Assembly (NCBI GenBank): GCA_002773985.1
Contig: PEZW01000018.1
Coordinates: forward strand, 34,240 to 98,239
Reading direction: 5' to 3'
Source of the DNA: Candidatus Berkelbacteria bacterium CG10_big_fil_rev_8_21_14_0_10_43_13
Lineage (GTDB): Bacteria; Patescibacteriota; UBA1384; XYA2-FULL-43-10; 1-14-0-10-43-13
Length of the DNA stretch: 64,000 nucleotides
Part shown: positions 3,014 through 57,438 of the stretch, piece by piece
Position numbering within the stretch: position 1 is the stretch's first letter
Layout: each line of letters opens with the position of its first letter
Position numbers and translations under genes: made by a program
The notes under the pieces: generated by a model
Told to the model about the DNA's origin: nothing
The model's database searches: none
What the model saw: only the letters and a program-made list of their open reading frames with translations

Positions 3014-3122
3014 GTTCGGCCATGGTAAGTTATAAGTTAATATATTGTAGACAGTAAGATATAATATTGCTGAGCAAATTACAGATTCTATTATTGCACA
3101 AAACTGTTTAAAAATCAACCTG

Positions 3123-5753
3123 CTACTTAATAACAATGTTTACTAATTTCTTCGGTACAACGATTGTTTTGACAATTTCATTCCCAGCAAGTATTTTCTT
3201 GATTTTTTCAGTTCCAAGTCCTAGCTTTTTCATTTCCTCGTCTGAAATAGCTGAATCAACCGAAATTTTATCACGAACTTTTCCATTGACCTGAATAACT
3301 ACTTCAATTTTGTCGAATATGAGATATTTTTTGTCTGGCTCAGGCCATTTTTGCATAGTTAAATCGCTGTGTATTACACTTTCATACAATTCCTCGGCAA
3401 TGTGCGGCGCAACGGGAGAGAGTAAAAGTATGAACTTTTCATAAGACTTTGTGGAAATTGAGCCTATCTTTTCAACTAAATTATTGAACTCCATCAATTT
3501 CGAGACCACCGTATTCATCTGAAAATTTTCTAGATCATTGGTCACGCCAGTAATCGTTTGGTTCAATTTGACCAGCAACTCTGTCGGATCAACTACGTTT
3601 TCTTTAACCAGTTCCTGATTTCGCCAGACACGCTTCAAAAAACGATAGACGCCCTGAACCCCAGCCATATTCCAGGCCGATTCCTGATCGTATGGACCGA
3701 TAAACATAACATAAGCGCGCAAAGTATCAGCACCAAATTCAGCGACAATCTCATCAGGATTTATCACGTTACCAAAAGACTTACTCATCTTGCGCCCATT
3801 AGGACCAAGGATGATACCGTGGGCGATTCTCTTGGCATAAGGCTCTAAAGTTGGTACGACGCCAATATCATAGAGAAATTTATGCCAAAAACGTGAATAG
3901 AGCAAGTGCAGTGTCGTGTGTTCCATCCCACCATTATAGATATCAACCCCACCTCCGCTCTTCGAGCTACGCGCGGCATCGCCGGCGTCCAGCCAATATT
4001 CCAACTCTTTGGCATGTTTGGTAAAGATATTCGAACCACTTTTAACTTTTGACTTTAAACTTTTAACTAATGTGTAAGCCAAGTAGTACCAACTCGAGCC
4101 CGCCCAGTTTGGCATGGTGTCCGTTTCTCTCTCGGCCCTGCCACCGCATTTCGGACAAGTCGTCACGACCCAATCTGTGATTTTGGCAAGAGGGGATTCA
4201 CCGGTATCTGATGGTTCATAATTGTCGACAACCGGCAATTCCAGTGGCAGTTGATCATCGGGCAGAGGAACACGACCGCATCCGCCAGTTGGCGGATCAC
4301 AATGAACGATCGGGATTGGCTCGCCCCAGTAATGCTGGCGGGAAAAAATCCAGTCGCGAAGTTTGTAGTTTGTAGTAAATTCACCGGCACCGATACTTTT
4401 TAACTTTTCAGTAATTTTGATCTTGGCTTCATCTGATGACAGTCCGTCAAATTCACCCGAATTAATTAAGATTCCATAGTCAACAATCGCTTTGTCTAAA
4501 ATTTCTGATTTATGATTCAAAATTGAAACGACTTGTTTGATCGGGATATGGTGTTTCTTGGCAAATTCATAATCGCGTTGATCGTGAGCCGGGACACCGA
4601 TGACAGCACCAGTCCCATAGCTGGTCAGGACATAATCAGCGACCCAAATCTCAATATGTTCACCATTGATCGGGTTGACGGCATAAACGCCATAGCATTT
4701 GACACCGGTTTTATCTTTTTGTAATTCAGTTCGCTCTAGTTCTGTTTTTTTCGCCGCCACTTCGACATATTCCTTGATCTCATGATAGTTTTGAATATGA
4801 TAGCCAAGTTTTTCTAAAATCGGGTGCTCTGGTGAAACAACGACAAAAGTTGTGCCAAAAAAGGTATCAATTCGAGTTGTATAAAATTCGATTTCTTCGT
4901 CGTGAACGGTATTACTAAAACCCTTGACCTCAAATCGAACATTAGTACCGGTCGAGCGACCGATCCAATTGATCTGTTGAGTTTTGATTTTATCCAAGTA
5001 ATCAACAGTTTCAAGGTCATCAACCAAGCGGTCAGCATAAGCGGTAATTCGAAGCATCCACTGTTTTTGCATTCTCTTCTCAGTTTCCGTGCCACAACGC
5101 TCGCATTTACCGTCAACAACTTCTTCATTGGCCAGATTTATCTTGCATGATGGACACCAATTGACCGGCATCTCAGCGCGAAAGGCAAGCCTAGGAGTAT
5201 GGTAATCATCATCGGCAACTTCGATTAATTTTCCATTTTTAATTCCATGTTTGTAAAATTGCAAGAAAATCCACTGAGTCCAGTGATAATATTCTGGATC
5301 AGTCGTGTTTATCTCACGCTTCCAATCAAATGAAAAACCAAGCGAGTGGATTTGCTTCTTGAAATTTGCAATATTATCAGCTGTCGCTTTTTGCGGTTTT
5401 ATTTTATTTTTTATAGCATAATTTTCTGTTGGCAGACCAAAAGCGTCCCAGCCGATCGGAAACATGACATTGTATCCCTGAAGCCGTTTCATCCTACAAT
5501 AAGCGTCAGAGGCGCCATAACCCATCAAGTGACCGACATGCAGCCCCGCCCCGGATGGATAGGGAAATTCAACCAAATGATAATGCTTGGGTTTATCGTC
5601 AAAATCAGCAGACTGACCGTATTTGTTTTTTTGCCAAATGTCTTGCCATTTTTTTTCGATGACACGAAAATCATACTCCTGCTTGTCGTCCGTAGCCTTG
5701 GCGGAGGAGGGCCACTTTTTCTCAATTTCGTGAAAATTGTATTTGTCTGTCAC
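3123..5753 (-). CDS. leuS: Leucyl-tRNA synthetase (GTG start)
   Basis: HIGH motif (HVGHLMGYGASDAY), KMSKS motif, editing CP1 domain and a zinc-binding Cys cluster. Length 876 aa. Confidence 0.95.
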   Translation of the reverse strand: MTDKYNFHEIEKKWPSSAKATDDKQEYDFRVIEKKWQDIWQKNKYGQSADFDDKPKHYHLVEFPYPSGAGLHVGHLMGYGASDAYCRMKRLQGYNVMFPIGWDAFGLPTENYAIKNKIKPQKATADNIANFKKQIHSLGFSFDWKREINTTDPEYYHWTQWIFLQFYKHGIKNGKLIEVADDDYHTPRLAFRAEMPVNWCPSCKINLANEEVVDGKCERCGTETEKRMQKQWMLRITAYADRLVDDLETVDYLDKIKTQQINWIGRSTGTNVRFEVKGFSNTVHDEEIEFYTTRIDTFFGTTFVVVSPEHPILEKLGYHIQNYHEIKEYVEVAAKKTELERTELQKDKTGVKCYGVYAVNPINGEHIEIWVADYVLTSYGTGAVIGVPAHDQRDYEFAKKHHIPIKQVVSILNHKSEILDKAIVDYGILINSGEFDGLSSDEAKIKITEKLKSIGAGEFTTNYKLRDWIFSRQHYWGEPIPIVHCDPPTGGCGRVPLPDDQLPLELPVVDNYEPSDTGESPLAKITDWVVTTCPKCGGRAERETDTMPNWAGSSWYYLAYTLVKSLKSKVKSGSNIFTKHAKELEYWLDAGDAARSSKSGGGVDIYNGGMEHTTLHLLYSRFWHKFLYDIGVVPTLEPYAKRIAHGIILGPNGRKMSKSFGNVINPDEIVAEFGADTLRAYVMFIGPYDQESAWNMAGVQGVYRFLKRVWRNQELVKENVVDPTELLVKLNQTITGVTNDLENFQMNTVVSKLMEFNNLVEKIGSISTKSYEKFILLLSPVAPHIAEELYESVIHSDLTMQKWPEPDKKYLIFDKIEVVIQVNGKVRDKISVDSAISDEEMKKLGLGTEKIKKILAGNEIVKTIVVPKKLVNIVIK

Positions 5754-5831
5754 TTTATAAACTTTCCAACTTTATGAACTTTATGAACTAATCTAGTAAT
5801 AATTTATCACTTATTCAGTGCAAATTCAATT

Positions 5832-5864
5832 AAAAAAACGGCTTACACCGTTTAATTTTGGTGG
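5832..5864. terminator. Bidirectional intrinsic terminator (AAACGG-cttaca-CCGTTT flanked by an A-run and a T-run) carrying a tRNA-CCA-end remnant (TGGTGG). Left copy of a 32-bp direct repeat.
   Basis: Hairpin 5836-5853 with a T-run after it and an A-run before it. The 32 nt at 5833-5864 are identical to 10322-10353. Confidence 0.55.
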
Positions 5865-10321: not shown

Positions 10322-10353
10322 AAAAAACGGCTTACACCGTTTAATTTTGGTGG
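10322..10353. terminator. Bidirectional intrinsic terminator plus the CCA end of the adjacent tRNA-like fragment. Right copy of the 32-bp direct repeat.
   Basis: Identical to 5833-5864. Hairpin AAACGG/CCGTTT with flanking A-run and T-run. Confidence 0.55.
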
Positions 10354-34149: not shown

Positions 34150-34300
34150 TTCTAGTCGCCCCGCTCACATCATCCTCCCCCGGTATGGGCGGGGCACTGA
34201 ACTGCTCACCACCTTCTTTGTCATCCTCGGGTTCAGCGGTGTGACTTGCTCCGCCTTGAGACTTAGGCGGGGCGAGAGAGTGAAGCCCGGGGATCTATAG
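34150..34300. repeat. MITE-like GC-rich palindromic element (same family as 42539-42779, opposite orientation)
   Basis: 34203-34265 is the near-exact reverse complement of 42700-42760. Confidence 0.5.
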
Positions 34301-35344: not shown

Positions 35345-35397
35345 GGTATCATTGCGAGCCAAGCCGATGTTCATCGGCTGGCGCGGCAATCTATCAC
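35345..35397. repeat. Short palindromic element GTCATTGCGAGCCAAGCCGATG-N-CATCGGCTGGCRCGGCAATC
   Basis: A near-identical copy occurs at 38810-38861, and a related start GTCATTGCGAGG at 36204. Confidence 0.45.
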
Positions 35398-35416
35398 AAT
35401 GTTAATAAAGTAGGCA

Positions 35417-36193
35417 ATGAAACAACAAATCACCGAAGAAGATCTCGTCAGGCTTTTTTCCTACCGGGACCGTGCTGAAAAACGACAAAGTGTACTTTTT
35501 AGTATATTTTACTATTTCATGTATTTCGCAATTTTTTCTGCGATAGTTTATTCTGTTATCAATTTCAATGCCGTCTCTTCGACAATCACTTATTGGTACA
35601 AAAGCAACTTTACGACGCAAACGACCGATGAAACACCTGTCGTTCAGATAAATGTGCCGAAAGTGCCAACTCTAGAGGAAGAAAAATACTCAACGCCGAA
35701 TGTCGCAGATAATCACATTGCGATTCCCGTATTGGATGTCAACGCACCAGTTACCTTTGGTGTCAACAATGTTTACAAAGAGGTTGAATCAAATTTAATC
35801 AATGGTGTTATTCAGATCAACGGCACCTCACTACCGGGACAAACCGGGAATATTTATATTACCGGTCATAGTTCCAATTACGTTTGGGTCAAAAGTGATT
35901 ATAACTCTATTTTTGCTCTACTTGATAAGCTCGTCATTGGCGACCAGATCTATATCAATTATAACGATGTTGTCTATGTTTATCAGGTTTTTGACACAAA
36001 AATTGTCGTGCCAAGTGACATTTCACTTTTAAAAGCTACAAATGATTCACGCCTGACCCTTGTAACTTGCTGGCCGGTCGGCACATCTCTAAAGCGCGTC
36101 GTCGTCCTGGCAAATCAAATTCATCCGGATCCCAAAAATAATACCAAGCCAGACACTCCGATCAATTTCCAGTCTTTGACTAGTGGACGATAA
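35417..36193 (+). CDS. Sortase family transpeptidase
   Basis: N-terminal TM helix, catalytic His (ITGHSSN), TLxTC motif (LTLVTCWP) and a conserved Arg downstream. Confidence 0.8.
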   Translation: MKQQITEEDLVRLFSYRDRAEKRQSVLFSIFYYFMYFAIFSAIVYSVINFNAVSSTITYWYKSNFTTQTTDETPVVQINVPKVPTLEEEKYSTPNVADNHIAIPVLDVNAPVTFGVNNVYKEVESNLINGVIQINGTSLPGQTGNIYITGHSSNYVWVKSDYNSIFALLDKLVIGDQIYINYNDVVYVYQVFDTKIVVPSDISLLKATNDSRLTLVTCWPVGTSLKRVVVLANQIHPDPKNNTKPDTPINFQSLTSGR

Positions 36194-38782: not shown

Positions 38783-38809
38783 ATGAATCTAGGCACCTAT
38801 CCGTCATTG

Positions 38810-38861
38810 CGAGCCAAGCCGATGAACATCGGCTGGCACGGCAATCTATGACTTTCGAAAT
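38810..38861. repeat. Second copy of the GTCATTGCGAGCCAAGCCGATG palindromic element
   Basis: Matches 35345-35397 with 2-3 mismatches. Confidence 0.45.
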
Positions 38862-38958
38862 GCAGAACTCAATTTATTAACATATTTTCCGATATATCAG
38901 ACAAGATGGAAATAAAATTTCTAAAATTTATGCAGAATTAATTTAAGAAGGTGGAGGA

Positions 38959-48640: not shown

Positions 48641-48776
48641 TAACTGCTCATTTGCAGTGTCATTCCCGCGCAGGCGGGAATCCAGGCAGCACAAACTTTT
48701 TATGGATCCCCGGGCACCACTCTCGAGAACACCGCTGGTCCCGAGGATGACAATGATAGGGTGAGTGAGTAGTTAC
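48641..48776. repeat. MITE-like element (TGTAACTGCTCA ... GAGTAGTTACA, with GTCATTCCCGCGCAGGCGGGAATCC hairpin)
   Basis: Same termini and core hairpin as the copy at 50041. Confidence 0.5.
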
Positions 48777-48848: not shown

Positions 48849-50030
48849 ATGAAACAAGTTAGCCCGTTCATGTTGGCGATAGACGACATTTGCGAAGAAA
48901 AAGGTTTGGACAAGGCAATTATTTTGGAAACTGTCGAGGCAGCACTTGCTGCTGCTTATCGTAAGGACTATGGTAAAGCACGACAGATAATTCGCACCAA
49001 GCTAAACCCGGAAACCGGTCAAGCTGAAATGTTTCGCATCTATGACGTCATCGAGGACCCCGAAGAGATCAAGGAACACGAACACGAGCTGACACTAGAT
49101 GAAGCAAAGGAAATTGACGCCAAAGCCGAATACGGCAAAGAAGTTATCGTCCCGCTACCACACCACGATGATTTTGGTCGTATCGCCGCCCAGACCGCCA
49201 AGCAGGTTATCATCCAGCGCATTCGTGAAGCTGAGCGCGACTTACTCTTTGCTGAGTTCAAAGACAAGGAAAACAAAATCATCACTGCAACAGTTTCCCA
49301 GCTTGAAGGCAGAAATATTGTTGTCAGCCTTGGTAAGGTAAATGGTATTTTGTATCCCTCCGAGCAAATTCCCAACGAGCGCTATCATCTAGGCCAAAGA
49401 CTAAAGGTTGTCGTCAAGGAGGTTTCACAGTCGGTCAAGGGTCCACAGATTATCGTTTCTAGAAGCAACGAAGAGCTTATTCGAGGACTATTTGAAATCG
49501 AGGTGCCAGAGATTCTGGCTGGCACTGTCGAGATAAAAAGTATCGCCCGAGAAGCTGGCTTCAGGACAAAAATTGCCGTCATCGCCACAGAAGACAAGGT
49601 TGATCCGGTCGGTTCGTGCGTCGGTCAACGTGGCACCAGGGTCCAGGCCGTACTTGATGAGATTGGCATGGAGAAAATTGATATAGTTCTCTGGGATGAA
49701 GATGTCGAACAATTTATCATGAACGCTTTGTCGCCAGCCAAGACTCGCCAGATTCAAATTTCATCCAAAGACAGCAAGGCTACCGTTTACGTCGACACCG
49801 ACAACCTATCACTTGCAATCGGCAAAAATGGTCAAAACGTTCGTCTTGCCTCAAAACTTACTGGATGGGGGATCGACATCAAATCACTTGAAGACCTCGG
49901 CGAAGAAGCAGCTGCTGAAGCAGTTGAGAAGAAAGAGATGACTATCAGTACTGCCAAAAAAGCTCCAGCCAAGAAGAAGGTATCAAAAAAGTCAAAGGCC
50001 AAAAAAGACAAAATTATTGACGAAGAATAA
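48849..50030 (+). CDS. nusA: Transcription termination/antitermination factor NusA
   Basis: NusA N-terminal domain, S1 domain (LGQRLKVVVKEV) and two KH domains. Length 393 aa, with a Lys-rich tail. Confidence 0.9.
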   Translation: MKQVSPFMLAIDDICEEKGLDKAIILETVEAALAAAYRKDYGKARQIIRTKLNPETGQAEMFRIYDVIEDPEEIKEHEHELTLDEAKEIDAKAEYGKEVIVPLPHHDDFGRIAAQTAKQVIIQRIREAERDLLFAEFKDKENKIITATVSQLEGRNIVVSLGKVNGILYPSEQIPNERYHLGQRLKVVVKEVSQSVKGPQIIVSRSNEELIRGLFEIEVPEILAGTVEIKSIAREAGFRTKIAVIATEDKVDPVGSCVGQRGTRVQAVLDEIGMEKIDIVLWDEDVEQFIMNALSPAKTRQIQISSKDSKATVYVDTDNLSLAIGKNGQNVRLASKLTGWGIDIKSLEDLGEEAAAEAVEKKEMTISTAKKAPAKKKVSKKSKAKKDKIIDEE

Positions 50031-50040
50031 CTCACTTTTA

Positions 50041-50165
50041 ATGTCTACTCGTATTATTCTGTCATTCCCGCGCAGGCGGGAATCCAGGCGAGTTGAATAA
50101 TTTCGAAAGCAAAGTATTGCAACCAAACTTCCTGGATCCCGGATCAGTGTCCGGGATGACAAAAA
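50041..50165. repeat. MITE-like element (GTCATTCCCGCGCAGGCGGGAATCC ... GTCCGGGATGAC)
   Basis: Its core hairpin is identical to the one at 48641. Confidence 0.5.
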
Positions 50166-53496: not shown

Positions 53497-54792
53497 ATGG
53501 GCAAACAAGTCTATCAAACAGCGCGGGGAACCAAGGATATCCTACCAGCCGAACAGCCGTACTGGGCACAGATCAAACAAGTTGCCGAAAAAACCTTACT
53601 TGGACTCGGTTTTGGCCGCATCACACTGCCGCATTTTGAAGACGCTGATATCTACACCAAGGGGATCGGCGCTGATACTGACATCGTGTCCAAGGAAATG
53701 TTTTATCTCAAATCTCACACTGATAGCGACTCGGTCAAACTTGCCCTCCGACCCGAAGGTACTGCCGGCGCTGTCCGCTCTTATATCCAAAACGGTATGT
53801 CAAGTTTGTCACAGCCCGTCCGCCTATATTACACCGGCGCTATGTTTCGTCACGAGCGACCACAAAAGGGCCGCTTTCGTGAATTTTATCAGGTCGGCGT
53901 CGAGATTTTTGGCGATGATTCAGCCAAAGCTGATTATCTCGTCATAATGTCTGCTTGGGAGATCCTGAATCGTCTTGGTTTAAAAAACTTAATCGTCTAT
54001 GCCAATTCGATCGGCTGCCCGAAATGTCGGCCGAAATATATTGCGAAATTAAAAAAATATTACAAAAGTCATCTCGACAATCTCTGCACTGATTGCCAAA
54101 ATCGTTATGAAGTCAATCCACTTCGCCTGCTCGATTGTAAGGAAGACAGTTGTCAGAAGGTCGCCAAGGGCGCCCCGACCATGCTCGACAATCTCTGCAC
54201 TGATTGCAAGACACATTTCCAGCAAACTCTCGAGTATCTTGATTATTTCAACATCCGCTACGATCTGGATCCGACACTGGTCCGCGGCCTCGATTATTAC
54301 ACGCGGACTGTTTTCGAAATCGTTGATAAGAGTGACAAGGGGCGCAAAAACACCATTGTCGGCGGGGGTCGCTACGACGGCTTGGTCGAATTACTTGGTG
54401 GTCATTCGACTCCAGCTGTCGGCTATTCGATCGGGCTAGAGAGACTGGTTGGGGCGATGAAAGAGCAGGGGATTAAGCCGCCAAAAACTCGCGGCGTTGA
54501 AGTCTGTATTCTCCAGCTCGGTGACAAAGCGCGAGAAATTTCCAAAAAAATTTACGACACCTTGGCAAAATCTGATATAAATGTTTATTTTGTCCCTAGT
54601 AATGATGGTATCCGACCACAGATCAAGTCAGCTGCCAAGATTGGGGCAACATACGCCGTCATCATCGGCCAGAAGGAAGCGCTCAACGATGAGATTATTC
54701 TGCGCGACCTGACCTCGTCCTCACAGGAAGTTTTCTCCTCCAAGGATATCGCCGAAGAGATCAAGAACCGCTTGATCAAATGTGAATGCTAA
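53497..54792 (+). CDS. hisS: Histidyl-tRNA synthetase
   Basis: Class II motifs (LRPEGTAGAVRSY and FRHERPQKGRFREFYQVG), a Cys-rich insertion domain and a C-terminal anticodon-binding domain. Confidence 0.9.
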   Translation: MGKQVYQTARGTKDILPAEQPYWAQIKQVAEKTLLGLGFGRITLPHFEDADIYTKGIGADTDIVSKEMFYLKSHTDSDSVKLALRPEGTAGAVRSYIQNGMSSLSQPVRLYYTGAMFRHERPQKGRFREFYQVGVEIFGDDSAKADYLVIMSAWEILNRLGLKNLIVYANSIGCPKCRPKYIAKLKKYYKSHLDNLCTDCQNRYEVNPLRLLDCKEDSCQKVAKGAPTMLDNLCTDCKTHFQQTLEYLDYFNIRYDLDPTLVRGLDYYTRTVFEIVDKSDKGRKNTIVGGGRYDGLVELLGGHSTPAVGYSIGLERLVGAMKEQGIKPPKTRGVEVCILQLGDKAREISKKIYDTLAKSDINVYFVPSNDGIRPQIKSAAKIGATYAVIIGQKEALNDEIILRDLTSSSQEVFSSKDIAEEIKNRLIKCEC

Positions 54793-54840
54793 CAACTTTG
54801 AACTTTACATACTTTTTTACTTTATAAACTTTCTCACTTT

Positions 54841-55293
54841 ATGAACTTATCCCTTGTTCTCGACAATATCCGCTCGATGCAAAACGTCGGTTCGATTTTT
54901 CGAACCGCCGACGCTGCTGGAGTTAGTAAGATTTATCTCTGTGGCTTCACGCCCAAACCACCGCGCAAGGAGATCGACAAAGCGGCTCTCGGCGCCGTTG
55001 ATTTTGTCGAGTGGGAATACCAAGACAATTTAAAAAATTTAATTTTCAATTTAAAAACAAAAGGGATTAAAATCATTGCCCTCGAACAGCATGAAAACTC
55101 AACCCCTTATACGTCATACGTTATACCTAATACGAATACTCTCGCTCTCATCGTCGGTAACGAAGTCGACGGCATCTCCAAAGAAATTTTGGAACTATGC
55201 GACGACATTATCGAAATCCCGATGCACGGCCAGAAGAATTCTCTAAATGTTGCCGTCGCCACAGGCATCGTGTTATTCGAATTAATAAAATAA
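54841..55293 (+). CDS. SpoU/TrmH-family RNA 2'-O-methyltransferase (SPOUT)
   Basis: SPOUT motifs NVGSIFRTADAAGV, LIVGNEVDGIS, and the knot region NSLNVAVATGIVLFE. Confidence 0.8.
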   Translation: MNLSLVLDNIRSMQNVGSIFRTADAAGVSKIYLCGFTPKPPRKEIDKAALGAVDFVEWEYQDNLKNLIFNLKTKGIKIIALEQHENSTPYTSYVIPNTNTLALIVGNEVDGISKEILELCDDIIEIPMHGQKNSLNVAVATGIVLFELIK

Positions 55294-55383
55294 TTTTATT
55301 ACAAACAAACACACCACTCTAATAGATCTTTAAGTCTTTAAATCATTAAACACACTATTCTTTTCTATACTTCCGCTATTACT

Positions 55384-55426
55384 TTTTATCCTTTTGACTA
55401 ACGATCGTTGTATAAAAGGATAAAAA
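55384..55426. promoter_or_regulatory. 42-bp palindrome TTTTATCCTTTT-gactaaCGATCGttgtat-AAAAGGATAAAA (left copy)
   Basis: Outer 12-bp arms are perfect with an AACGATCGTT core. It lies 17 nt upstream of the 55443 ATG. Confidence 0.5.
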
Positions 55427-55442
55427 GTTTTAGAATTACATT

Positions 55443-56042
55443 ATGATCCAAAAAGAGACAAAAGAAATTATTAAATTAACTAGCAAGGAAATTTTACTTC
55501 TTTTTGCGGACGGGGTGGCATCTCTCGGATTTGCATTTACAAAATCCAAAAAAGACAAAAATGCTTTAGGAAAATATTTAGATGAACGATCCATCGATCG
55601 ATCAGATTTTTCACGAAAAATATATCGTCTCAAGCAACGCGGTTATATCCGAAAAATCGTTGAAAACAAGAGTGATTATATTGAGCTTACCGACTTAGGT
55701 AAAAATCGTGTAGAGATAAATTATTTAAATGAGCTGAAACCGAGAATTTCAGATCACTGGGACAAAAAATGGCGAATTATAATTTTTGACATTCCGGAAA
55801 AGTACCGCACAATCCGTGATGTCATCCGTTCAAAACTTTATGAACTTGGTTTTATCCAGGTTCAAAAAAGCGTGTTTGTATATCCGTTTGATTGCCATCA
55901 TGATATACAATTAATTTGTAAACATTATGGTGGATCAACCTATATTAAATATATGATCGCAGAAATTATTGAGGGGGAAGAAGAGTTCATAGAAATATTT
56001 ATTAATAATAACATACTAACTAAAGATATTTTATCCTTTTAA
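55443..56042 (+). CDS. wHTH plus Cas2-fold (PaaX-C-like) putative transcriptional regulator
   Basis: The C-terminal WRIIIFDIPEKYRTIRDVIRSKLYELGFIQVQKSVFVYPFD resembles the Cas2/PaaX_C fold, and the N-terminal region looks like a wHTH. No CRISPR array is present. Confidence 0.5.
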   Translation: MIQKETKEIIKLTSKEILLLFADGVASLGFAFTKSKKDKNALGKYLDERSIDRSDFSRKIYRLKQRGYIRKIVENKSDYIELTDLGKNRVEINYLNELKPRISDHWDKKWRIIIFDIPEKYRTIRDVIRSKLYELGFIQVQKSVFVYPFDCHHDIQLICKHYGGSTYIKYMIAEIIEGEEEFIEIFINNNILTKDILSF

Positions 56043-56070
56043 CTAACGATCGTTAGTTAAAAGGATAAAA
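56029..56070. promoter_or_regulatory. Perfect 42-bp palindrome TTTTATCCTTTTAACTAACGA/TCGTTAGTTAAAAGGATAAAA (right copy), overlapping the stop of the 55443 gene
   Basis: The left arm's reverse complement equals the right arm exactly. Confidence 0.55.
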
Positions 56071-56115: not shown

Positions 56116-57438
56116 ATGAGAATAAAAATTGAGAAGTTAATATATGAAGGCTGGGGCATCGGGCACGACGAAAATGGTCGCGCTGTTTTTGTCAAAAAAT
56201 CTGTTCCTGGCGACGTCTTGGATGTCAAAATAACCAAAGAAAAAAAGTCCTATACTGAAGCTGTGATTGAAAAAATAATCGAGCCATCAGAAAAAAGAAT
56301 TGATCCACCATGTCAATATTTTGATCTCTGTGGTGGCTGTGAACACCAAAATATTGCTTATCCTGATCAATTGAAATTTAAAGAAGAAATTTTTAGAGAA
56401 ACGCTGTCGCGGACAAAAATTGAGACAGAGATATTGCCAATCGTGCAAGCCTCTGAGCCATTCTTTTATCGCAACTCCATCCGTTTCTTTTTGGTCGAGC
56501 AAAAAAGCGGAAAGAAAATTTTCACTCGCCACAATTATCTCTACACTGATGGCTTAGTCGAAGCAGAAAGCTGTTTGCTCCAATCAGTAAAATCAAACCT
56601 GATTTTGTCTCTGATTTTAGAAGTCGTCAATTCTGATCGCAACAAATCTCTATCCGGTTTTTATCAGGTCAAGATCCGTGAAGGTAAATTTACTGATGAA
56701 TTTATGGTCGAGCTGATGACTGATGACAATAAGTTGCCATTTGAGCTGGAACTAAAAACCGCCCTCAATCAAATTCCGGAGATTAAGTCCCTCTATCACA
56801 CAGTCACTCCACAGAGGCAACTGAGGAATATTCGACGACGCTTACTTCATGGCTCACCAATAATAAGCGAAAAGATTGATAAATATAAATTTCAGATTTC
56901 GCCAGATTCTTTTTTTCAGACCAATTCACTCGGAGTTAAGGCTTTATATGACAAGATCAAGGAATTCGCACAGATCGAAATGGGGGACACTGCTCTTGAT
57001 CTTTTCTGCGGTACTGGCACGATCGGTATTTATCTCTCGACACTGGCCAAGGAAGTTGTCGGCGTCGAAGTCGTCCAAAGTGCCGTCAATGACGCCAAAG
57101 TCAATGCTAGAATAAATAATATTTATAATTGTGAATTTATCCACGCCGATGTAAATATGTGGCTTAGAAATGAAAAAATTGAAAAATATGAAAATATAAA
57201 AATTATCCTCGATCCGCCTCGCGCTGGGCTAAACAAAGAATTGATCAAAAAACTTTCTAACTTTTTGTCCTTGAAAAACTTTACAAACTTAATTTATGTT
57301 TCCTGCAACCCTGCGACTTTTGCCCGCGACATCAATGAATTTGAATTACATGGACTAAAATTAAAAAAAGTCCAGCCACTGGACATGTTTCCGCAAACCC
57401 ATCACCTCGAATGTGTCGGATTATTGCAAAAGATCTAA
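56116..57438 (+). CDS. rlmD: 23S rRNA (uracil-C5)-methyltransferase RlmD/RumA family (TRAM, [4Fe-4S] Cys cluster, SAM MTase). Start taken at MRIKIEK.
   Basis: TRAM domain, CQYFDLCGGCEHQ cluster, SAM motif LDLFCGTGTIG and the catalytic Cys near the C-terminus (YVSCNPAT). Confidence 0.8.
   Translation: MRIKIEKLIYEGWGIGHDENGRAVFVKKSVPGDVLDVKITKEKKSYTEAVIEKIIEPSEKRIDPPCQYFDLCGGCEHQNIAYPDQLKFKEEIFRETLSRTKIETEILPIVQASEPFFYRNSIRFFLVEQKSGKKIFTRHNYLYTDGLVEAESCLLQSVKSNLILSLILEVVNSDRNKSLSGFYQVKIREGKFTDEFMVELMTDDNKLPFELELKTALNQIPEIKSLYHTVTPQRQLRNIRRRLLHGSPIISEKIDKYKFQISPDSFFQTNSLGVKALYDKIKEFAQIEMGDTALDLFCGTGTIGIYLSTLAKEVVGVEVVQSAVNDAKVNARINNIYNCEFIHADVNMWLRNEKIEKYENIKIILDPPRAGLNKELIKKLSNFLSLKNFTNLIYVSCNPATFARDINEFELHGLKLKKVQPLDMFPQTHHLECVGLLQKI

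Follow-up and report, generated by a model that had tools for sequence, protein, structure and literature searches.

We analysed a 64,000-nucleotide stretch of Candidatus Berkelbacteria bacterium CG10_big_fil_rev_8_21_14_0_10_43_13 (assembly GCA_002773985.1, contig PEZW01000018.1, forward-strand positions 34,240 to 98,239; hereafter the window, numbered from its first nucleotide), in which the gene for a 199-aa short PaaX-like protein lies between two 42-bp palindromes. A gene enclosed by matching palindromes is a trait of the whole protein family and not a one-off of this locus. The two palindromes are probably the cognate double-stranded DNA binding sites (operators) of the protein encoded between them, a reading to which we give a probability of roughly 0.7 on comparative sequence data. 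The family layout, the anatomy of the sites, the covariation within their arms and the protein fold were computed here. No published account of a gene-between-palindromes layout was found in the literature on PaaX with Cas2, the candidate phyla radiation (CPR) or Patescibacteria.

The downstream element is a perfect 42-bp palindrome (TTTTATCCTTTTAACTAACGATCGTTAGTTAAAAGGATAAAA) made of two 21-nt arms without a spacer. The upstream element (TTTTATCCTTTTGACTAACGATCGTTGTATAAAAGGATAAAA) is the same at 38 of 42 positions, confirming the near-identical pair described in an earlier note on this DNA (the sequence-only reading); in the repeat listing, the two copies are 91% identical over 43 nt. The upstream copy is an imperfect palindrome (16/20 pairs) whose symmetry is weakly extended to 55376-55433. 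Both copies possess the same outer 12-bp arms and the same centre (AACGATCGTT), and all four differences fall between these parts. Seventeen nucleotides separate the end of the upstream copy from the ATG at 55443. The stop codon (56040-56042) is located inside the downstream copy, whose end lies 45 nt ahead of the rlmD gene if this starts with the ATG at 56116 (it could also start at an in-frame TTG, 56077). The same two sites were present in five independent assemblies of the locus. All coordinates are summarized in Table 1.

When up to 3 mismatches were allowed, the 64-kb window contained no palindrome copies beyond the two flanking ones, and the 42-mer gave zero matches in 100 shuffles. The 12-mer arm was found in exact form only at the four arm positions of these two copies. 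The core motif defined below matched the window 54 times, and symmetric arms were observed only at the two flanking sites (shuffle mean 0.04). Taken together, the shuffles, the arm count and the scan for core plus arms exclude a chance origin of the pair; with the family-wide pairing, they also rule out a one-off duplication.

The protein belongs to a large family, with 6384 cluster representatives (50% identity) at E <= 1e-3 and 1028 at E <= 1e-30, almost all of 180-210 aa. Its layout was analysed in 80 loci from species-representative genomes, nearly all of them metagenome-assembled genomes (MAGs) of Patescibacteria, plus three closer relatives; several of the sampled MAGs contributed two or three paralogues. 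For the pairing test, 265 nt upstream of the gene were compared with 295 nt downstream in search of an ungapped shared block, and flanks of different loci were used as controls. In 72 of 82 loci the shared block outscored the control maximum (observed median 21.75; control median 9.5, maximum 14). This block is locus-specific and about 40 bp long. Strong palindromes were detected 87 times in the 447 kb of loci, 62 of them within the two ~160-nt windows at the gene ends. A scan of the same 447 kb for the site anatomy (a core with symmetry at 9 or more of 11 arm positions) placed 71 of 73 sites at the ends of family genes, as well as both sites (2/2) of the window. The upstream site is centred at a median of -46 from the ATG and the downstream site at +28 past the stop codon, with a median spacing of 645 bp, exactly the centre-to-centre spacing observed in the window. 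The downstream site follows the stop codon of the family gene and is best assigned to the 3' end of that gene, not to the neighbouring gene.

The anatomy of the sites was determined on 65 loci (130 sites) anchored at the site centre. Each site is tripartite: a conserved core is flanked on both sides first by a loose spacer of 4 bp and then by one of two symmetric arms (~11 bp). The core (positions +-1 to 4) reads R-C-K-R|Y-M-G-Y, with C at -3 and G at +3 in 98-99% of the 130 sites; the commonest 8-mers are ACGATCGT (27 sites), GCGATCGC (14), GCTATCGC (13) and GCTATAGC (12). Complementarity amounts to just 57-68% in the spacers (+-5 to 8) and to 68-92% in the arms (+-9 to 19; 78-92% at +-10 to 17), versus 26-41% in shuffled sequences. 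All four base-pair types are used at each arm position, and symmetry returns to background beyond about +-21 from the centre. At the very centre, positions +-1 and +-2 are 80% complementary, as predicted for a symmetric protein on duplex DNA and not for a hairpin loop. The arms differ between loci, including paralogues of one genome and syntenic orthologues, and the two copies of one locus match. The window has TTTTATCCTTTTAACTA, for instance, whereas the arm is TTATATACATTTGTTC in L096 and TTATCCCAATAAGTTT in L085, the latter two being loci of other Berkelbacteria lineages.

We then considered whether these elements act as DNA or as RNA. The palindromes could be protein-independent hairpins, that is terminators, insulators or mRNA-stabilising stem-loops, the upstream copy being in that case the 3' element of the preceding gene. 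Both window copies can indeed be folded as an RNA hairpin of -22.5 kcal/mol (z about -7), and a consensus scan calls the downstream one terminator-like on the minus strand. On the plus strand, this hairpin (4 GC pairs of 19) is followed by AAUAAAGUUG and no U tract is present on the sense strand, while canonical GC-rich terminators with a T run exist elsewhere in the same window. Throughout the family, a TTTT or AAAA run adjoins ~26-32% of the sites, upstream and downstream copies being alike for TTTT. In 39 of 61 loci the gene upstream is read in the same direction, and solo sites described below sit right after stop codons or between convergent genes, as a terminator might. In downstream copies, G:T mismatches outnumber A:C mismatches (82 vs 45, p = 0.0013), a bias that the upstream copies do not have (75 vs 72). 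Against such hairpins stand the restriction of 71/73 sites to one gene family, where a generic terminator would be expected everywhere, and the locus-specific arms shared by the two copies, which hairpin function does not need; moreover, the would-be loop is 80% self-complementary and its sequence is conserved family-wide. A search of Rfam returned no family match, only sub-threshold hairpin matches. The elements thus resemble intrinsic terminators by a stable hairpin at a gene 3' end and by the A or T runs beside some of the family sites, and differ from them by an AT-rich stem of 19-21 bp, by the lack of a sense-strand U tract, by their attachment to one gene family and by their occurrence as matched pairs. 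Hence, protein-independent hairpins appear quite unlikely, and the data favour duplex DNA read by a symmetric protein. The sequence-only reading had named, as the finding that would speak against it, a ubiquitous terminator unrelated to this gene family; what was found is an arm that, within the window, is unique to this pair, and a class of sites almost confined to family genes.

The 199-aa product is identical to the hypothetical protein COT78_02865 of a Candidatus Berkelbacteria MAG. Pfam identified PaaX_M (PF20803) at residues 104-180 (9.7e-22, 77.3 bits vs a cut-off of 24) and a weak winged helix at residues 30-92 (DUF6293_C, 5e-5), and the winged helices of AspA, TubR, MarR and PadR matched with E values of 7e-4 to 0.1. 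The AlphaFold2 model (predicted local distance difference test, 81.9) consists of a winged helix (helices 36-48 and 53-65, wing 69-82), a linker helix and a ferredoxin-like domain. When this model was compared to the PDB with Foldseek, the best match was E. coli PaaX (8a39, E 9e-5, 182 columns); M. tuberculosis Rv0674 (3kfw) ranked next, ahead of Cas2 structures. Pfam, model and Foldseek therefore agree with the winged-helix N-terminus and the Cas2-fold domain proposed in the sequence-only reading, whose PaaX_C label has to be replaced by PaaX_M. The PaaX_C effector domain gave no Pfam match in this protein, which ends at residue 199. Alignment to PaaX with hhalign covered PaaX residues 58-165 only, and the PaaX model TIGR02277 scored 31.7 bits vs a cut-off of 264.55. 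Together, these results show that the protein is a short PaaX-like protein that combines a winged helix with a Cas2-like PaaX_M domain and is devoid of the effector domain.

Some database records label proteins of this family Cas2. The C-terminal domain indeed shares with Cas2 the ferredoxin-like fold, a beta1 strand bearing an ...FDI motif with a conserved Asp, and a QxSVF strand. The Cas2-type Asp116 and the FDIP and QKSVF motifs are invariant in 40 of 40 sequences, the invariant motifs of the domain reading WD...FDIP...QKSVF. In a profile alignment, FDIPEK and QKSVF of the family correspond to SEGLDK and APSLM in E. coli PaaX. The protein differs from Cas2 by its fusion to a winged helix, by the absence of a CRISPR repeat array from the window and by scores just under the Cas2 cut-offs (Pfam, 20.6 vs 23.8; TIGR01573, 22.7 vs 24.5), with only beta1-alpha1 aligned. 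Defence-system models produced only weak Cas2 and CARF winged-helix matches. No cas-related family was seen among the 25 most frequent Pfam families of the neighbouring proteins, a comparison that included no cas1-specific search of the wider window. The protein is not a Cas2 in the CRISPR sense.

Mean pairwise identity is 26.5% in the winged-helix half and 50.7% in the Cas2-like half, so that the winged helix is the fast-evolving half of the protein. A variable winged helix next to a conserved Cas2-like half mirrors variable arms around a constant core, a correspondence that, as far as sequences tell, indicates parallel evolution of protein and site.

These features can be assembled into a model, in which we infer binding, repression, looping and any role beyond self-regulation. 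A symmetric dimer or higher oligomer would occupy one tripartite site of 40-42 bp. The Cas2-like domain, probably the dimerisation module, would be seated on the core, and the winged helices would read the locus-specific arms, ~9-19 bp on either side of the centre and ~30 bp apart. Either the conserved part of the protein or a requirement for DNA shape could underlie the conserved RCGATCGY core. Occupation of the upstream site would block the gene's own promoter (autorepression), as E. coli PaaX does at the Px promoter. The downstream site would most plausibly be a second operator that loops with the upstream one across the ~645 bp enclosing the gene, or a roadblock, and once transcribed it can also form a stable 3' hairpin.

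The E. coli PaaX operator is TGATTC-N27-GAATCA, ~39 bp in length, and the repressor acts on its own promoter, where it hinders RNA polymerase (PMC9493321). The family studied here resembles PaaX of E. coli and Pseudomonas in its order of domains, a winged helix followed by a Cas2-like PaaX_M domain, and PaaX is its best structural match. By analogy, its sites would be operators of ~40 bp with widely spaced inverted half-sites, the arms being at +-9 to 19 and the upstream centre at a median of -46 from the ATG. Several differences are evident. The protein has 199 residues vs about 316 in PaaX, and it lacks the PaaX_C effector (phenylacetyl-CoA) domain. No paa genes are nearby, and paa families were absent from the 25 most frequent Pfam families of 140 neighbouring proteins. 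The sites combine a conserved central core with hypervariable arms, and a second copy is systematically placed past the stop codon of the gene. Genomes carry several paralogues, and the Cas2-type motifs that degenerated in E. coli PaaX are retained. Dimeric operators and autoregulation, already proposed from the sequence alone, are therefore the reading best supported by the comparative data, namely pairing in 72/82 loci, position in the promoter region and probable PaaX-like geometry.

A proposed loop would also have precedents. Lambda CI (OL/OR), DeoR, GalR and LacI are repressors whose gene-flanking operators cooperate by DNA looping, and in phage lambda the repressor gene itself is located between two operator regions. 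The arrangement described here is similar in that several hundred bp separate two copies of one proposed operator, the first of which is at a promoter. It differs in that a second site right after the stop codon is present family-wide and that no other members of a regulon are evident.

The position of the upstream copy is in line with a role at the promoter. A putative sigma-70-type promoter, identified by eye, overlaps the right half of the upstream palindrome; its TAGAAT lies 6 nt ahead of the ATG, and its TTGTAT was created by the substitutions that set the upstream copy apart. It is missing from the consensus scan because its -35 element matches at only 3 of 6 positions. If used, it would direct transcription from about 55443 and yield an mRNA with no leader or almost none. 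In the family, 8 of 65 upstream copies have an extended -10 element (TGnTAnnnT) at +15 within the right arm, none of the 65 downstream copies does, and many other loci have a TATAAT ~5-25 nt past the upstream site. The likely promoter is thus covered in part by the upstream site, which is what autorepression would predict.

The window neighbours of the gene are hisS, a SpoU/TrmH methylase gene, rlmD and lexA. The downstream palindrome might chiefly be an operator of rlmD, and the protein a dedicated rlmD regulator, in accordance with the 45 nt that separate this site from the rlmD ATG and with the synteny to rlmD kept in L085 and L096. In L085 two reverse-strand genes lie between the site and rlmD, and in L096 the site lies ~170 nt upstream of rlmD. 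Family-wide, the downstream neighbour is co-directional in 37 of 59 loci and convergent in the other 22. The 140 neighbour proteins matched 160 Pfam families, each at most 3 times and all of them housekeeping, and thus revealed no conserved neighbour function. Since the downstream copy follows its own gene's stop codon, neighbours are often convergent and no neighbour function recurs, this copy is generally not the operator of the next gene. Control of rlmD, put forward in the sequence-only reading, is not supported as a general function, and a dedicated rlmD regulator is decidedly unlikely.

Table 1. Features of the palindrome-flanked gene in the window.
Feature	Coordinates	Strand	Basis or remark
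Gene for 199-aa short PaaX-like protein (COT78_02865)	55443..56042	+	
Winged helix-turn-helix coding region, ~aa 30-92	55530..55718	+	Pfam, winged-helix matches, model
Cas2-like PaaX_M coding region, aa 104-180	55752..55982	+	PF20803, invariant motifs, Foldseek
Upstream palindrome copy, proposed operator over own promoter	55384..55425	.	Imperfect; centre at -39 from ATG
Core ACGATCGT of upstream site	55401..55408	.	Family consensus R-C-K-R|Y-M-G-Y
Downstream palindrome copy, proposed second operator, roadblock or 3' hairpin	56029..56070	.	Perfect, overlaps stop codon
Core ACGATCGT of downstream site	56046..56053	.	Sequence and family consensus
Putative sigma-70-type promoter: -35-like TTGTAT 55408-55413, 17-nt spacer, -10-like TAGAAT 55431-55436	55408..55436	+	By eye

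A gene exactly bracketed by palindromes and without a conserved partner gene also recalls mobile DNA. In Hin/hix, REP-RAYT (repetitive extragenic palindrome), IS200/IS605 and pdif modules, a small gene is bracketed by imperfect palindromes, and the gene of ~0.6 kb described here likewise lies between two copies of a palindrome, one of them imperfect, that its own product presumably recognises. In such a selfish or DNA-rearranging module, the Cas2-like domain would nick or recombine the CGATCG core, and the palindromes would be the ends of an excisable or invertible cassette. This could account for the invariant Asp116, FDIP and QKSVF (40/40), where E. coli PaaX has SEGL and APSLM, for nearly all sites being self-flanking, and for solo palindromes, which are expected after deletion between repeats. 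Both relative orientations of the two copies occur: judged by their asymmetric parts, 20 pairs are direct, 10 inverted and 35 ambiguous. Such mixed orientations are not predicted by a polar recombination mechanism.

The genomic context argues for stability. The gene lies upstream of rlmD in the window, L085 and L096, which represent three Berkelbacteria lineages, and identities across these are 52-59% for the PaaX-like protein, 54-57% for rlmD and 75% for LexA. Conserved synteny and rlmD-like divergence fit vertical inheritance at one position, where the arms were replaced. Paralogues of the same genome have different arms and are hence no recent copies. No target-site duplications were seen, and no orientation polymorphism was observed among the assembled contigs of the five assemblies of the locus, which are all alike. 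Pfam detected no transposase or recombinase domain in the 199-aa protein, nor did NCBIfam for transposases, and no HUH motifs were present. In 2.9 million viral contigs a single relative was found, with no palindromes beside its gene, which argues against a phage origin. The locus therefore differs from the Hin/hix, REP-RAYT, IS200/IS605 and pdif systems by the lack of recombinase, HUH or tyrosine-transposase motifs, by having just 2 palindromes in 64 kb and not many copies across the genome, by stable synteny and by no inversion polymorphism seen. Compared to a transposable element or a miniature inverted-repeat transposable element, it is one unit in 64 kb, has no transposase domain and is syntenic in three lineages.

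Two contigs from two other samples, L093 and L095, part from the window exactly at 55376 (L093 1032/1033 = window 55375/55376; L095 54/55). Their new flank replaces the hisS-trmH side, and their downstream side still leads into rlmD. This alternative left junction could have been taken for a moved cassette. The new flank codes for an IS256-family transposase (L093 24-698) of the variant Zn-binding type, recognised by NCBIfam NF048019 (7e-77) where Pfam found nothing, and the junction, the only one of its kind, is instead an insertion sequence (IS) placed 8 nt from the palindrome. The palindrome edge is thus a strain-level breakpoint or IS target. Many short contigs carrying family genes (L087, L090, L093, L094, L096) end at or inside palindromes. 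Read as a sign of inversion, these ends are explained more simply by assembly breaks at perfect palindromes, probably breakage of the de Bruijn graph, and such loci must in consequence be systematically fragmented in metagenome assemblies. Altogether, an excisable or invertible cassette is highly unlikely, and the suggestion in the sequence-only reading that the palindromes could be the termini of a small cassette is not supported, given the rlmD synteny, the rlmD-like divergence and the absence of identical extra copies.

Not every site of this kind lies at a family gene. A metagenome scan for the window arms plus core returned 5 contigs with 3 distinct sites, counts that are not genome-wide because the collection omitted the locus's own JGI contigs. 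In L087, the site that was hit lies downstream of a homologue with 42% identity, whose upstream site has nearly the same arms. The other contigs carry solo palindromes with no family gene in reach, located between a GNAT-like gene and thrS in L086/L090 and between convergent genes in L088/L089. A further solo site with different arms was found in L089, and L075 has one solo site too. Solo sites may be targets of paralogues encoded elsewhere, or relics of gene deletion between flanking repeats. As a separate observation, an open reading frame of 1292 aa (L089 4661-8539), whose N-terminus looks Cas12a (Cpf1)-like by eye (…YSLSKTLRFELKPIGET…), lies 1.6 kb from a solo palindrome (~3069-3110).

Several points weigh against operators of an ordinary self-regulator. 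Almost no other sites of this class occur near family genes or in the 64-kb window, which leaves a regulator that targets only the flanks of its own gene without obvious purpose, and the protein has no recognisable effector domain. Solo sites occupy the 3' ends of unrelated genes. The spacers, although asymmetric, are 60-72% conserved between the two copies of a locus, which suggests gene conversion or some constraint that a symmetric dimer would not impose. Arm similarity does not track winged-helix similarity (2080 locus pairs, Spearman 0.01), except for a small rise in close relatives; this comparison is not informative, in part because winged helices cannot be aligned reliably below 30% identity. 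Finally, the excess of G:T mismatches in downstream copies suggests some RNA-level selection on them, so that an added role as a 3' hairpin stays plausible.

The missing effector, the scarcity of other sites, the asymmetric and conserved spacer and the solo 3' sites thus fit an ordinary regulator poorly and leave room for a more unusual reading. In it, the gene and its two palindromes would form a self-contained module whose Cas2-like domain is catalytically or structurally active on the CGATCG core, and the protein would not be an ordinary transcription factor. It might instead act site-specifically, as a nickase or in recombination. It might also belong to a terminator or insulator system that depends on the protein and takes the place of canonical termination in the streamlined genomes of Patescibacteria, or be a toxic nuclease that silences itself tightly. 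Such a module would explain the self-flanking sites, the absent effector domain, the fast diversification of specificity and the solo 3' sites; we regard it as unlikely, if worth keeping in view beside the operators.

Other repeats of the window were recorded in passing. An exact 30-nt GC-rich hairpin repeat (TGTCATTCCCGCGCAGGCGGGAATCCAGGC) at 48658-48687 and 50060-50089 brackets nusA (48849-50030), and a 95-nt stretch of an unrelated metagenome contig (L086 8159-8247) is 85% similar to this nusA-flanking repeat region; it may be a REP-like or terminator element. Two more repeats have a terminator-like look: an exact 32-nt repeat (5833-5864 = 10322-10353) with a small hairpin and a T run (AAAAAACGGCTTACACCGTTTAATTTTGGTGG), and an 82-nt repeat, 77% identical between 35349-35430 and 38804-38885, with a hairpin (TCATTGCGAGCCAAGCCGATG...CATCGGCTGGC). 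An ACTTT(A) pentamer recurs about every 9 nt at 54802-54848 (TRF period 17, 2.8 copies) and runs into the start codon (ATG 54841) of the gene for the SpoU/TrmH methylase; an array like it is present at 5752-5790, and these may be arrays of regulatory binding sites. The hisS gene contains an exact 24-nt direct repeat (CTCGACAATCTCTGCACTGATTGC, 54073-54096 and 54184-54207) that codes for a duplicated LDNLCTDC motif.

To our knowledge, Patescibacteria have few recognisable regulators, almost none of them with a known binding site. The layout described here provides a predicted cognate DNA site for each member of a large uncharacterised protein family, readable directly from the genome. It amounts to a collection, assembled by nature, of proteins paired with sites in which the core stays constant and the specificity arms change fast; such a collection would be useful for studying how DNA-recognition specificity evolves and as a source of orthogonal repressor/operator parts. 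With a second site behind the stop codon, no effector domain and hardly any other targets, the family seems to have a function still to be understood, and it may connect proteins of the Cas2 fold with sequence-specific transactions on DNA outside CRISPR.

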